Positions 50,628 to 55,705 of a DNA stretch of 64,000 nucleotides are shown here, piece by piece. A program made the position numbers and the translations under genes. The notes beneath the pieces were generated by a model. It searched no databases. It was given only the letters and a program-made list of their open reading frames with translations, and was not told where the DNA came from. The stretch comes from Bacteroidales bacterium (GTDB taxonomy: Bacteria > Bacteroidota > Bacteroidia > Bacteroidales > WCHB1-69): the NCBI GenBank assembly GCA_017650305.1, contig JAGCFD010000052.1:21096-85095 (forward strand), in the 5' to 3' direction. Each line of letters begins with the position of its first letter. The stretch's first letter is position 1.

Positions 50628-52151
50628 ATGAATCCGATTTTCACCCTCGCTGACGTTGAAAAAATCGTTTACGGAGACAAGAAGATAGCCCTTTCCGACC
50701 TGCCGATGGACAAGGTGGCGGAGTGCTACGATTTTCTGAAGCAGTTCAGCGCAGACAAGATCATATACGGTATCAACACCGGCTTCGGGCCGATGGCGCA
50801 ATGGCGCATCGACGATGCCGACCTCACCGCTTTGCAATACAATATCATTCGCAGTCACTCCACGGGCGCGGGCGAGCCGCTGCCCGACGAGTGCGTGAAG
50901 GCCGCCATGGTGGCCCGCCTCGGCACCTTCCTGCAGGCCCGCTCCGGTGTGCATCCTGACCTCGTGAAGCTCTTGGTGGAGATGATCAACCGCGACATCC
51001 TCCCGATGATTCCTCGTCATGGCAGCGTGGGTGCAAGCGGCGACCTCGTGCAGCTGGCGCACCTCGCCCTCGCGATGATCGGGGAGGGGAGCGTCCACTA
51101 CCACGGCGAATGGCGGCCGGCAGCGGAAGTGCTGAAGGAGAATGGACTCGAGCCGTTCAAGATCCACATTCGCGAAGGACTCTCCATCACCAACGGCACC
51201 GGCGTGATGACCGGCGTGGCGATGATCAACCAGTTCCAGGCCGAGCAACTGCTCGACTGGGCCACACTCGCCGCCGTGATGATGAACGAGATCGCCGGCT
51301 CCTTCGACGACCTGATGGCTGAACCGCTCAACACGGTGCGCCGTCACGAGGGACAGCAGGTCATCGCCGCCCGCATGCGCACGCTCGCCCGCGACAGCCA
51401 GTGCCTGCAACAGCGCGAGCATCAGCTCTATGAGGGTGACCATACCGAAACGACCTTCGACCACAAAGTGCAGCCCTACTATTCGTTGCGTTGCGTGCCG
51501 CAGATCCTCGGTCCCATTTACGAGACCCTGGCCAACTGCCGCCGCGTGCTCGAAGAGGAACTTAACTCCGCCTGTGACAACCCCATCGTGGATCCCGAGA
51601 CCCGCAATGTCTATCACGGTGGCAACTTCCATGGCGACTACGTCTCTCTCGAACAGGACAAAGTCAAGATTGCAATGGTCCGTCTCGTGATGACCGCCGA
51701 GCGCCAGCTCAACTATCTCTTCCATGACCGTATCAATGGCATCTTGCCGCCGTTCCTCAACATGGGCAAATTAGGGCTCAACTACGGCATGCAGGCGTGC
51801 CAGTTTACGGCTACCTCCACCACCGCCGAGTGCCAGACGCTGGCCATGCCCAATTATGTGCACAGCATCCCAAACAACAATGACAACCAAGATGTTGTGA
51901 GCATGGGCACCAACACCGCATTGCTCACCCGCACGGTCATCGACAACGCTTGGCAGGTGCTCTCCATCCAGTATATCGCCCTTGCCCAAGCCGTTGACTG
52001 TCTGAATATTGCCGATAAACTCGCCCCCATTTCGAGACAGATATACAAACAAGTGCGCGAGATATGCCCCGCCTTCATTGAGGATACGCCGTTCTACGAG
52101 GACCTGCGGAATGTGGAGGCGTTACTTAGAAGACAACGCCTCGGCTTTTAA
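50628..52151 (+). CDS. aromatic amino acid ammonia-lyase (HAL/TAL family; flexirubin-type tyrosine ammonia-lyase-like)
   Basis: 507 aa. MIO-forming GASGDL. Motifs GINTGFGPMAQ, NIIRSHSTGAG and HSIPNNNDNQDVVSMGTN. From memory these closely resemble the Flavobacterium johnsoniae TAL. Confidence 0.8.
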   Translation: MNPIFTLADVEKIVYGDKKIALSDLPMDKVAECYDFLKQFSADKIIYGINTGFGPMAQWRIDDADLTALQYNIIRSHSTGAGEPLPDECVKAAMVARLGTFLQARSGVHPDLVKLLVEMINRDILPMIPRHGSVGASGDLVQLAHLALAMIGEGSVHYHGEWRPAAEVLKENGLEPFKIHIREGLSITNGTGVMTGVAMINQFQAEQLLDWATLAAVMMNEIAGSFDDLMAEPLNTVRRHEGQQVIAARMRTLARDSQCLQQREHQLYEGDHTETTFDHKVQPYYSLRCVPQILGPIYETLANCRRVLEEELNSACDNPIVDPETRNVYHGGNFHGDYVSLEQDKVKIAMVRLVMTAERQLNYLFHDRINGILPPFLNMGKLGLNYGMQACQFTATSTTAECQTLAMPNYVHSIPNNNDNQDVVSMGTNTALLTRTVIDNAWQVLSIQYIALAQAVDCLNIADKLAPISRQIYKQVREICPAFIEDTPFYEDLRNVEALLRRQRLGF

Positions 52152-52188
52152 CCAAGAACCTAAACCTTAAACCCTATACTCTAAAAAA
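52152..52188. repeat. heptad array ccaagaa cctaaac cttaaac cctatac tctaaaa
   Basis: Fills the entire spacer between the lyase stop (52149-51) and the reductase ATG (52189). Confidence 0.65.
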
Positions 52189-52917
52189 ATGAAATACGCA
52201 CTCATAACCGGAGGTTCCCGCGGCATCGGACGTGCCGTGGCCATGCGCCTCTCCCGCGACGGGATGCCCGTCATCATCAATTATGTAAGCAACGATGCAG
52301 CTGCCGAGGAGACCAAACAGATGGTCGAGGCTCAGGGCGGCACTTGCGAGCTGCTGAAGTTCGACATCGCTGACGCACAGGCCGTCGATGCAGCCTTGCA
52401 GCAGTGGGAGGAGTCGCACCCCGACGATTATATCTCCGTGCTGGTGAACAATGCCGGCACGCGCCGCGACAACCTGATGATCATGATGGATGAAGACGAC
52501 TGGCATAGCGTCATTGACACGCCGCTGAACGGCTTCTTCTACATCACCCGCCGGGTGGTGAAGACGATGTTGACCAAACGCGATGGCCGTATCATCAACA
52601 TGGCATCGCTTTCGGGATTGAAGGGCGTCCCCGGCCAGACTAACTACAGCGCTGCCAAGGCTGCCATCATCGGCGCGACCAAGGCGTTGGCACAGGAGGT
52701 GGCCAAGCGCAAAGTGACGGTCAACGCCGTGGCGCCGGGCTTCATCGCCACCGACATGACCGCCGAGCTGGATCAGGCTGCCCTCAGCAAGATGATCCCC
52801 GCACAGCGCTTCGGCACACCCGACGAGGTGGCCGCCGCCGTCGCATTCCTCGCCTCCCCGGAAGCCTCCTACATCACCGGGCAGGTAATCCAGGTGAACG
52901 GAGGACTATACAGTTAA
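52189..52917 (+). CDS. 3-oxoacyl-ACP reductase (FabG-family SDR)
   Basis: 242 aa. Motifs TGGSRGIGRA, NNAG and YSAAKAA (YxxxK). Confidence 0.9.
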   Translation: MKYALITGGSRGIGRAVAMRLSRDGMPVIINYVSNDAAAEETKQMVEAQGGTCELLKFDIADAQAVDAALQQWEESHPDDYISVLVNNAGTRRDNLMIMMDEDDWHSVIDTPLNGFFYITRRVVKTMLTKRDGRIINMASLSGLKGVPGQTNYSAAKAAIIGATKALAQEVAKRKVTVNAVAPGFIATDMTAELDQAALSKMIPAQRFGTPDEVAAAVAFLASPEASYITGQVIQVNGGLYS

Positions 52918-52966
52918 AAGTTGTCAGTTAAGAGTTGTCAGTTAGCAGTTCGCAGTTGGAAGGTGG
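52911..52966. repeat. heptad array of 8 units: cagttaa aagttgt cagttaa gagttgt cagttag cagttcg cagttgg aaggtgg
   Basis: The first unit supplies the reductase stop (AGT TAA). The phase was verified base by base. Confidence 0.85.
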
Positions 52967-53203
52967 GTGGCGAATAAAAAAAGGGGACTATATACTTGAT
53001 GGCACCTATGTGATGGTGAAAACAGAACCTCTTTTTTCGAGATTTCATTGCAATGAGCAATAACGTTCTTTGTTATAAGTATCAGTTTATTAGGTAATTA
53101 TAGTCTTTAACTTTTCTCTTCTATATAACTAGAATCCTTGTTATTTCTCATGTCCGTTTGAATATTTCAATGAGAACTTGATAGAAAAATTACAAAAGAT
53201 CAA

Positions 53204-53545
53204 GCCGACATGAAATCGCCCGCTCTGTCCGCCCTCTGACAGCGGCCATTCACGCCGCGTCCGCCTCGCCATGTCGGCATTCCCGCCCGCGTACTCCATG
53301 GCGAAATATTACCTTGATTCCACATTGCCTGTGCGCTGGTCGGTCGCCATGACGCTCGGACGCATCTGTGCGGGCTTGCGGTTCCCCGTAGGGGATACAG
53401 ATCTGTAGCCTGGGGTGAAGACGTGAGGTACGAACGCCTCACCCCAGGGGAAAGGCGTGTGCGTAAGATAGGTCGCGGCGCGGGTGAAACCTGCCATGAT
53501 GTTGGTAACATGCCCGCCGCGAAAGGGGAGACTGTGCCATCATGT
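53204..53545. ncRNA. candidate structured non-coding element (GC-rich island, family and strand unknown)
   Basis: About 340 bp that is visibly GC-rich, flanked by AT-rich ORF-free DNA. Strong helices: gccgacatg/catgtcggc (53204-12 / 53270-78), catggcga/tcgccatg (53297-304 / 53344-51), cctggggtga/tcaccccagg (53409-18 / 53439-48). The only ORFs are R/S/P/G/W-rich and look like composition artefacts. Confidence 0.35.
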
Positions 53546-53555
53546 ATATAATTAC

Positions 53556-53594
53556 CCCAAAAATAAACGGCGGAACGATTTGACCGTCCGCCGT
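53556..53594 (-). terminator. rho-independent terminator of the sigma/lipoprotein operon
   Basis: 8-bp stem acggcgga/tccgccgt (53567-74 / 53587-94), followed on the minus strand by TTTATTTTT. Confidence 0.7.
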
Positions 53595-53617
53595 CTGACA
53601 TGTGGAGTGCTCTGGTT

Positions 53618-53833
53618 TTATTTGCACTTGTAAACGGACATTCCCATGCCTTCTTCTTCGTTGAGCTTCTGCTCCATGGCTTTGCAGTCTTCTTTGCTCA
53701 TGCTCTCGTCCTCAAAGACGGGGAATGAGTTGGTGACATCAGTCTTCACATAGCAATGGCAACCTTTGCTGCATGATGTGGAGACGGCCGCCAGCATCAA
53801 AACTGCTGAAAACAAAACCAATACTTTTTTCAT
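53618..53833 (-). CDS. small Cys-rich lipoprotein (hypothetical)
   Basis: 71 aa. Lipobox AVSTSC. Four further cysteines (CHC .. C .. C) and an acidic C-terminal half. Confidence 0.6.
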   Translation of the reverse strand: MKKVLVLFSAVLMLAAVSTSCSKGCHCYVKTDVTNSFPVFEDESMSKEDCKAMEQKLNEEEGMGMSVYKCK

Positions 53834-53937
53834 ACAGGTTTTTCTAGACTTCTTGGTGATATAATCATGAATAACTGTGATTGTCTATGCGGAAGTCGAT
53901 AACACAGAGATATCTGCAGTCATCCGTTTTGAAATTA

Positions 53938-54648
53938 TCAGAATGACAATGTGATGGCAGCTCCGCAGGGCGCAGCTCTGAAACCCAGTTGTATGTTGGC
54001 TGTCGTGCCGTTGAAGTTCTGTGTGATATTGTTGAATCGCACTTTGCTTCGGATGGTTAGTATGGCCGCGGGCACGATGAAAGCGGTGGTGGCGAGCGCG
54101 CTGCCCGCGAATATGAATAATCCTCCCATGGCGCTGCGCCAGAGGTCCGGGCCCAAGCGGTCGCTTTCAAGGAGTTGATCTCTTAGTTTTGCCGTTTGGA
54201 AGAAGACGGCGCAGAATTGATAAAGCCCGATTCCAGCGAATGCGGCCGCACACCCGCCGGCCACAAAGAGCGGAATGCTGATGGCTGTATTCCGCTTGGC
54301 CTTACGATATTCAGCGTAATCGCTGGCAGAGAGCAGTCCTTTGAGCTCCGTGTCGTTAAGACGGAACAACTCACCGCCCACCCCGTTGATGTACATGGCA
54401 CCTCGCTGGTGATACAGCTTTCCGACACCCCGGTCTCTTTGGAGCGCTTGCAGGAGCTCCTCTTTGCTCTTTGGTATGGAACTGGAGGTGGAATCATAAA
54501 CATATAGCGTATCATAGACAACCTCTTCTTCGTAGATGTAGAGGGTGTCTGGACTGGTTTTAGGGTCGTCCACTTGGGCAAATGCGGTGACGGAGACGGC
54601 TGATAGCAGCCCTGTCACGATGAAACTGAAAAACATCTTTTTGAGCAT
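53938..54648 (-). CDS. hypothetical secreted/membrane protein (2 predicted TM helices)
   Basis: 236 aa from MLKKMFFSFIVTGLLSAVSVTAFAQ. The track ORF start at 54771 overlaps the upstream sigma gene and is unlikely. Confidence 0.55.
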   Translation of the reverse strand: MLKKMFFSFIVTGLLSAVSVTAFAQVDDPKTSPDTLYIYEEEVVYDTLYVYDSTSSSIPKSKEELLQALQRDRGVGKLYHQRGAMYINGVGGELFRLNDTELKGLLSASDYAEYRKAKRNTAISIPLFVAGGCAAAFAGIGLYQFCAVFFQTAKLRDQLLESDRLGPDLWRSAMGGLFIFAGSALATTAFIVPAAILTIRSKVRFNNITQNFNGTTANIQLGFRAAPCGAAITLSF

Positions 54649-54658
54649 GGTGTAGGAT

Positions 54659-55705
54659 TTATGGTTGGGTTGAATCTTGAATGACAACGGTACGTCTCTT
54701 TTTTTTGACCACCTTTTTGACCACGACAGGCTTGGGAGTGTCGGTGACGGTGTCAGACGGCGGCGCGGCATCTTCCTTTGCTACAGGTCGTGACGTGCGG
54801 GGTGCTTTGACGGTGGTGCTCGCCGGATTACTGGCAGCCTCAAGACTTTCATGGGCTGGGAGCTCGTGGGAGTCTGTGTCGAGACTGTCTGTTGCCAAGG
54901 AGATGGGTGGAACGACGTCTGGCGTTACGGTGCGGGAATGGTTGGCCCAAAAGAAGCCTCCCGCTGAGGCTGTGAGCACGCCTGTGGCGATGATGGGAAG
55001 CGTATGCGCATTCATCCATAGGCGGAGTGATAGCGGAGAAGACAGGGACCCTTCTCCGATGGTGATGGGATCCTGTGGTGAGATGGAAAAACCAGCCATC
55101 TTCTGACGGCAATAGCGGTCGAACGCCTTGTCTGGGTTGCTGAATAGTGGAATCATGAACATAAGCAGGGGTTTTCTTTGTTTTGATTTTTCAAATAGGA
55201 TCTTCTGAAGATGTCTGCGTGCCCGTAGAAGATGCGACTTGGAGGTGTTGACAGATATCCCCATGAGATTCGCAATCTGTTGATGGGTGTATCGTTCGAA
55301 GATGTAAAGGTTCAGGACAGTGCGATGATGCTCGGGCAGCTGGGCGATGGCCTCCAGGATCTCTTCTTGGGTGAACTCTGCCTGTCTGATGGCAGCCATC
55401 ATCCCTTCAGCGGAAGCGCTATCGTCATCTTCCTCTGCGGCAGCGAACTCGGAGGACAGCGGTATGGCTTTCCGCTCCTGACGCAGGTAGGCGAGCGCCT
55501 TGTTGATGGTGATACGCATCAGCCACGCCTCGAAAGAACCGAGGCCTTTGTAGGTGTCCGCCTTCTCGATGGCAGTCAGAAACGCATCATGTGCGATATC
55601 CTCTGCCGTCTCGCGCACAGGCACGTAGCGGTAGCATACACCGATCATCTTCGCTATGTTCTGGTTGTACTTCTTCGTCCAGAACGACTTCATTCTTTTC
55701 TTCAT
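54659..55705 (-). CDS. ECF-type sigma-70 factor fused to a TM helix and Pro/Thr-rich, Lys-rich C-terminal extension
   Basis: 348 aa. Region 2 DIAHDAFLTAIEKADTYKG..FEAWLMRITINKA. Region 4 LPEHHRTVLNLYIFERYTHQQIANLMGISVNTSKSHLLRARRHL. Then TM LPIIATGVLTASAGGFFWA and the tail ..KPVVVKKVVKKKRR. Confidence 0.8.
   Translation of the reverse strand: MKKRMKSFWTKKYNQNIAKMIGVCYRYVPVRETAEDIAHDAFLTAIEKADTYKGLGSFEAWLMRITINKALAYLRQERKAIPLSSEFAAAEEDDDSASAEGMMAAIRQAEFTQEEILEAIAQLPEHHRTVLNLYIFERYTHQQIANLMGISVNTSKSHLLRARRHLQKILFEKSKQRKPLLMFMIPLFSNPDKAFDRYCRQKMAGFSISPQDPITIGEGSLSSPLSLRLWMNAHTLPIIATGVLTASAGGFFWANHSRTVTPDVVPPISLATDSLDTDSHELPAHESLEAASNPASTTVKAPRTSRPVAKEDAAPPSDTVTDTPKPVVVKKVVKKKRRTVVIQDSTQP

Follow-up and report, generated by a model that had tools for sequence, protein, structure and literature searches.

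A GC-rich intergenic block in a Bacteroidales genome is very probably part of a MITE

INTRODUCTION

What is a sharply bounded, GC-rich and helix-rich block of some 340 bp doing between two convergent gene ends of a rumen Bacteroidales genome? The block lies at 53204-53545 of the window, the whole 64,000-nucleotide stretch that was analysed (GenBank assembly GCA_017650305.1, contig JAGCFD010000052.1, positions 21,096 to 85,095 of the forward strand). A preliminary description, made from the letters and their open reading frames, took it for an orphan and proposed it as a candidate novel structured RNA. One way to understand such an island is to look inside it, for a gene or a fold; another is to look for its relatives, first in the same genome and then in the genus. 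The second approach places the block within a larger unit, 52983-53558, which is very probably a copy of a MITE (miniature inverted-repeat transposable element), a kind of cut-and-paste DNA transposon that is non-autonomous and has no transposase gene of its own. The kind is ordinary; the family is apparently undescribed, as no description of it was found in the literature. The cargo of the element has conserved hairpins, which stand beside a Flavo-1-like motif in related genomes, and may have an RNA role, though this is improbable.

BOUNDARIES AND PARTS OF THE ELEMENT

The sharp edge that first drew attention to the block is borne out: G+C content is 59-66% over 53200-53500 against 26-33% over ~53000-53200, with a genome mean of 49%. 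The AT-rich, ORF-free DNA to the left, which had been read as flank, is actually the left arm of the same repeat. The unit is 576 bp long and consists of the GC-rich block together with the AT-rich ~240 bp on its left (Table 1); its termini are 23-25-bp terminal inverted repeats (GGnnAnTATATACnTGATGGCAC). When an extended query was compared with the genome's own assembly by BLAST, homology among copies was seen to begin at ~52972-52989 and to stop at ~53556-53567. Copies of the element have defined outer ends, and homology between them breaks off there.

In and next to the left arm, more than 25 other copies have sequence homologous to 52972-53120 and 53177-53246; the 56 bp inserted between these stretches are common only to the copies on contigs C66 and C52. 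At the other side of the element, the inverted-repeat motif recurs in the loop of hairpin C (TCATGGCA, 53491-53498, minus strand), as a putative second transposase-binding site.

Table 1. Parts of the element and of its insertion site, in window coordinates
Feature	Position	Strand	Remarks
Target site, left copy, A/T-rich TAAAAAAA	52975-52982	.	Flank directly outside the left inverted repeat
Left terminal inverted repeat GGGGACTATATACTTGATGGCAC	52983-53005	+	Inverted match of 53534-53558
AT-rich left arm	53006-53203	+	Includes 56-bp insertion 53121-53176
Subterminal TGATGGTGA repeat	53011-53019	+	Within the AT-rich left arm
GC-rich cargo, mosaic of hairpin modules	53204-53533	+	~10 copies in G000 and G006, 81-94% identical
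Hairpin A, CCCC-GUA-GGGG	53384-53394	+	Present in 14/14 aligned homologues from four genomes
Hairpin B, CCUGGGG...CCCCAGG, with inner 5-bp stem; the 10-bp helix of the preliminary description	53409-53448	+	
Hairpin C, CGCGGCGCGGG...CCCGCCGCG	53474-53521	+	Stem invariant or pairing-preserving
Right terminal inverted repeat GGGGTAATTATATACATGATGGCAC (minus-strand reading)	53534-53558	-	
Target site, right copy AAAAATAA, the T-run of the minus-strand terminator	53559-53566	.	
Terminator hairpin of the 71-aa lipoprotein gene	53567-53594	-	Insertion target, outside the element

THE FAMILY IN ITS OWN GENOME AND IN THE GENUS

The block is no orphan. In the window's own genome (G000; an assembly of 2.09 Mb in 66 contigs) the query 53190-53560 has 76 BLAST matches; five are near full length, at 88-93% identity, and many of the matches to short modules lie at contig ends. 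When up to three mismatches are allowed, the genome contains 71 instances of the inverted-repeat core TATATACnTGATGGCAC, and 17 elements, 114-682 bp in length, have a complete inverted-repeat pair. If each element is taken to end 6 nt beyond the core, nine of these 17 lie between 8-bp direct repeats that differ at one position at most, and in seven of the nine the repeats are perfect (TTATTTTA, TTTTCTTT, TATTTTTA and AAATAAAA are examples); pairing the left flank of one element with the right flank of another gives a rate of 4%. A+T makes up 91% of the flanking sequence. The characters by which a MITE is known are thus found at this locus and in its family: inverted repeats at both ends, dispersed small copies without a transposase ORF, an empty site in relatives (below) and, for the family, a duplication of fixed length. 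In the window copy this duplication is imperfect, TAAAAAAA agreeing with AAAAATAA at only six of eight positions, which counts against the reading. What had been proposed as an orphan structured RNA is cargo inside an element that is present in many copies and has inverted repeats and target-site duplications.

A different perspective would have the unit be a palindromic repeat of the REP/BIME kind, whose spread was due to recombination or to a RAYT-type (Y1/HUH) enzyme and not to a DDE transposase. Its interior is a mosaic of GC-rich hairpin modules close to terminators, as this would suppose, and the modules are also found outside inverted repeats in other genomes of the genus. However, DDE cut-and-paste elements are marked by just this combination of long inverted repeats with GG termini and target-site duplications fixed at 8 bp, and a repeat with defined outer ends, at which inter-copy homology stops, does not suit the proposal; we hold it to be very improbable.

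Close copies of the MITE differ by indels of ~108, 56 and 34 nt. The ~108-nt segment is absent from the window copy and from that on C66, and is held by most siblings between 53246 and 53243-equivalent positions; the hairpin B module is wholly absent from four sibling copies (C21, C5, C30b and the one in G006). Indels of these sizes are more in keeping with a mobile repeat in decay than with an RNA gene under constraint. A degenerate variant with longer GC-rich cargo is found just after a tRNA-Arg(CCT) gene (G000:C12:17802-18288; L012 2303-2789). It has two extra modules, a decayed right inverted repeat and no left end, and may be an old insertion beside the tRNA gene; Rfam finds only the tRNA there.

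Outside the window's genome, the repeat-end pattern is abundant (12-59 hits) in nine of 55 genomes of the genus, and a reversed control pattern gives no hits in any of the 55. Among 185,579 species genomes the exact 24-mer is confined to Bacteroidales/Muribaculaceae MAGs from rumen, omasum and caecum.

INSERTION INTO A TERMINATOR

The state of the locus before insertion can be read from relatives. In G008, a congener, synteny is kept between the SDR gene and the end of the lipoprotein operon, which are only ~150 bp apart; the spacer ends in ...GGTAAAAAAAAAAGCGGCGGAACG..., which is the terminator hairpin with an unbroken A/T run, an A10 run adjoining the hairpin, and the empty site reads GGTAAAAAAAAAAGCGG. 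The closest relative, G006, is 93% identical in the flanking gene and has no element beside the hairpin. In the window the terminator reads ACGGCGGA...TCCGCCGT and then TTTATTTTT on the minus strand. Because G008 and G006 keep the same hairpin without the element, the insertion can be placed: the element went into the T-run of the minus-strand terminator of the lipoprotein gene, and the hairpin and a T-run are intact. A consensus terminator scan does not call the hairpin at 53567-53594, its loop being longer than 8 nt, over the limit of the rule. Lying between two convergent gene ends, with terminator hairpin and T-run preserved, the copy here most likely does nothing specific.

The intergenic site of the window's MITE is a hotspot of gain and loss. 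At the MITE position, G006 has an AT-rich ORF of ~315 codons, or 1 kb, with a lipoprotein-like product (G006:C28; L025 2070-3015); neither G000 nor G008 has this ORF.

Arrays of AGTTNNN heptads, (AGTTGTC AGTTAAG ...)n, start right after stop codons at 52918-52960 of the window, at L029 2013-2095 in G008 and in L018; their position is conserved across the genus and their sequence is not.

A PROPOSED MOBILIZING ENZYME

The scheme we propose is that the element would be moved by an IS1595-family DDE transposase acting in trans, which would bind the TGATGGCAC-containing ends and the subterminal repeats. A mover of this type is suggested because the duplications are 8 bp long, the termini begin with GG and the repeat ends resemble those of IS1595-family elements; we infer it, because no autonomous element with identical ends was found. 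On these grounds, mobilization in trans by such a transposase seems likely, if with less assurance than the identity of the element itself.

The window's genome holds three IS1595-family transposase genes. All three products have Zn_ribbon_IS1595 and DDE_Tnp_IS1595 domains above Pfam cut-offs, two of the three reach the NCBIfam NF033547 cut-off, and each gene lies within an element of ~1 kb bounded by inverted repeats of its own (CAATAGATACnnGTTGAC). The resident elements (G000:C37:3095-4146, C3:13782-14761 and C29:~290-1355) are each single-copy with an intact ORF, and the three proteins are diverged, at 50-56% identity. IS1595 copies in G053 and G006 (L055/L056) have flanking sequence in common; therefore at least one IS1595 insertion is old and vertically inherited.

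The insertion-sequence ends closest to those of the MITE, TA(G/T)ATAC(A/G)TGTTGGC, are found in two MITE-rich genomes, G058 and G053. They reach an alignment score of 7 against the MITE ends, where shuffles give -4.2 +/- 3 with a maximum of 5-6 in 500, and agree with them at 16-17 of 23 positions; none is identical. The ends of the three resident insertion sequences score -1 to 3, inside the range of shuffles (maxima 5-7). The ISNwi1 subgroup of IS1595 has ends of the form 'ggnnatTAT', which were not used as evidence.

Across the genus, a match to one of the three resident transposases at E<=1e-10 is present in 16 of 55 genomes, and a full-length gene in ten: five of the nine MITE-rich genomes and five of the 46 others (Fisher 0.006, for related genomes that are not independent). 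A full-length IS1595-like gene was not found in four of the MITE-rich genomes (G032, G043, G045 and G051), all of them draft MAGs. Neither G000 nor the loci examined from relatives yielded an autonomous element that has these very inverted repeats: solo repeat ends in G000 adjoin ordinary genes, with no autonomous partner there; 20 loci with the exact 24-mer consist of short pairs or solo ends only; and across the genus, all repeat-end pairs among those listed are less than 800 bp apart.

CODING POTENTIAL

A further perspective would locate the origin of the block in a protein gene, now decayed, or in the remnant of a transposase. Every copy has long minus-strand ORFs (112-151 aa), which is what recommends the idea; but two or three frames are open simultaneously, the longest frame differs from copy to copy, and the 34-nt indel disrupts the frames. 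Pfam gives no match at E<=0.1 for ORFs inside the element, and the search for a transposase or conserved ORF within it returned none. The GC-rich block has no similarity to the resident IS1595 transposase genes, and no translated match spans it in one frame across copies. The chance that a coding remnant lies here is close to nil; the earlier reading of the block as non-coding, with ORFs that are artefacts of composition, was sound.

THE CARGO AS A POSSIBLE RNA

The helices

The structural features first recorded are in place. Perfect helices of 9 bp (53204-12/53270-78), 8 bp (53297-304/53344-51) and 10 bp (53409-18/53439-48) are present, with the two small hairpins cccc-gta-gggg and cgca-tctg-tgcg, and the failure to match known RNA families is repeated by database search: over 52000-55000, Rfam 15 at E<=1 returns only a chance-level MAT2A_D (E=0.24), and ARAGORN finds neither tRNA nor tmRNA at the locus. 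The fold is no better than that of shuffled sequence. The predicted folding energy of the plus strand, -135.4 kcal/mol, compares with -135.2 +/- 5.5 in dinucleotide shuffles (z = -0.04); the minus strand has z = -1.45. In an alignment of ten close copies these helices pair in 95.6% of cells, because the sequences themselves are conserved. A covariation check, as the preliminary description called for, gives nothing significant in the same ten copies: values as high as those observed are attained in 64-110 of 500 shuffles. Invariant columns are somewhat more frequent in stems than elsewhere (74% vs 58%), a comparison biased by the choice of stems on the window copy.

More distant homologues of 53384-53527, 70% identical, occur in G045, G051 and G032, and in an alignment of 14 sequences hairpins A, B and C are kept, with five or six pairs changed on both sides and several G-U pairs that can be read on the plus strand only. 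The outer pair that adjoins hairpin A (alignment columns 12/25) goes from G-C to U-A; the long-type homologues, at 70% identity, preserve both stems of hairpin B, outer and inner, with both partners exchanged at three pairs; across 24 right-end modules and the 14 homologues, the stem of hairpin C either does not vary or stays paired. The double changes amount to few events, because they separate only two clades. The hairpin modules are conserved beyond what pure junk cargo would predict, and this counts against a plain MITE reading. Of the structured RNA first proposed, then, three hairpins are real and conserved, with pairing kept through double substitutions, but the minimum free energy is at chance level. 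The suggested switch is not supported: gtgagg (53423-28) with cctcac (53437-42) does compete with the 10-bp helix, but has no counterpart in the diverged long-type homologues.

Hairpins A and B also occur together as short intergenic repeats (CCUUGAGCAG-CCCCGNNAGGGG-CAAGAGCUYGGUAG-CCAGGGG...CCCCUGG) without inverted repeats elsewhere in the genus (L016-L022, in G004, G016, G010, G014, G008 and G007), at one to six per genome; one of them sits between the ATPase and permease genes of an ABC transporter.

The connection with Flavo-1

Four related genomes (G045, G051, G032 and G043) have elements of ~380-660 bp between the same inverted repeats. The long-type elements have hairpins A-C, then a hairpin that matches Flavo-1 (RF01705) at 28-39 bits, the gathering score being 42, and after it a GC-rich hairpin followed by ...ACGCCCAAAU(A)n. 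The Flavo-1-like match is present in every long-type locus tested. Long-type loci include L087 (G051:C58), L096, L093, L088, L111 (G043:C50:7320-7800) and L112 (G043:C32:65660-66260), with a conserved multi-hairpin cargo of ~400 nt; on either side of L111 the 8 bp AAAAAAAC are duplicated without mismatch. For the long cargo, alifold favours the plus strand over the minus strand (-116.7 vs -97.4 kcal/mol).

Flavo-1 units also stand alone, without inverted repeats, and the gathering score is reached by such units in seven of 55 genomes of the genus. In them the closing helix of the long cargo, GCGUG/CACGC, becomes GCGUU/AACGC. The stand-alone unit of G000 (C18:28381-28454; L104) scores 36 bits and lies upstream of a response-regulator gene; this unit and L114 (G007:C108:400-900) have a second GC-rich hairpin and ACGCCCAAAU(A)n after them.

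The window copy itself has no Flavo-1 match at E<=1 over 52000-55000. A resemblance of 53204-53380 to an inverted Flavo-1 loop region of the long cargo was considered and dropped, as BLAST at word size 7 gave it no support.

The GC-rich block of the window would be passenger DNA made up of hairpin modules. Its cargo looks like a recombined and deleted variant of one that elsewhere continues into the Flavo-1-like motif, and in this clade Flavo-1 may be a module that transposons carry.

What the hairpins may be for

Two ways of giving the cargo a function can be weighed. The first supposes that the GC-rich block is a functional structured RNA of the plus strand, with hairpins A-C acting, for example, as stabiliser, decoy or regulator and the MITE a mere vehicle. 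The retention of these hairpins at 70% identity, with changes on both sides of pairs and G-U pairs that make sense on one strand, speaks for it, as do the position of the modules before the Flavo-1-like hairpin inside the same inverted repeats in G045, G051 and G032, the plus-strand preference of the long cargo and, with the bias mentioned, the invariance of stem columns. However, the Flavo-1 part is missing from the window copy, which also lacks ~108 nt relative to its siblings, and four of those siblings dispense with hairpin B; the fold is no better than shuffled sequence, the ten-copy covariation is within shuffle range, and the double changes split just two clades. We think this account improbable.

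The second perspective looks to the family and not to the window copy: the inverted repeats would be a vehicle that spreads a candidate RNA of ~400 nt, composed of hairpins A-C, the Flavo-1 hairpin and the GCGUG/CACGC helix. This seems unlikely too, if less so than a functional RNA in the window. If it were true, Flavo-1 in these genomes would be a mobile, transposon-borne RNA gene, or else a structure of RNA or single-stranded DNA needed for transposition; the window copy would be a truncated derivative, which may still yield a structured plus-strand RNA.

IMPLICATIONS

GC-rich 'islands' between genes in MAGs of rumen Bacteroidales should be checked for membership of this MITE family before they are put forward as RNA candidates. 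Short-read assemblies tend to break at the family, as the many contigs that stop within a copy show, and terminator T-runs are a target of the MITE. The sibling elements with Flavo-1-like modules provide a lead on an Rfam motif that has lacked a known function since 2010.

COMPARISON WITH KNOWN SYSTEMS

Flavo-1 (Weinberg et al. 2010, PMC2864571) is without known function; hits to it in Flavobacterium psychrophilum are found in sense, in antisense and outside transcribed regions (PMC9723704). The likeness of the window element to Flavo-1 (RF01705) is one of neighbourhood: its hairpins A-C are homologous to the modules that precede the Flavo-1-like hairpin in related elements, but the motif itself is absent from it.

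Eight-bp target-site duplications have been described for the IS1595 family, and GG termini with 8-9-bp duplications for the related Merlin elements of eukaryotes (PMC8101967). The element resembles both in inverted repeats that start with GG and in 8-bp target-site duplications. Its end core, TA(T/G)ATACnTG(A/T)TGGC, resembles that of IS1595-family elements in the same genus, and transposases with Zn-ribbon and DDE_Tnp_IS1595 domains are encoded in the same genome. The element differs from the IS1595 family in having no transposase gene, and no autonomous partner with identical ends was found. From MITEs derived from DDE insertion sequences it differs in its interior, which is not an internally deleted transposase gene; instead it carries an unrelated cargo of GC-rich hairpins.

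The Correia elements of Neisseria and the MITEs of Porphyromonas gingivalis are the nearest in general habit: short, multi-copy, intergenic, bounded by inverted repeats and often near gene ends. Correia elements duplicate TA, and bacterial MITEs are known to break short-read assemblies. Compared with these, the sequence of the inverted repeats and the length of the duplication are different, and the family described here is larger, with elements of up to ~680 bp, and has a highly modular GC-rich interior.
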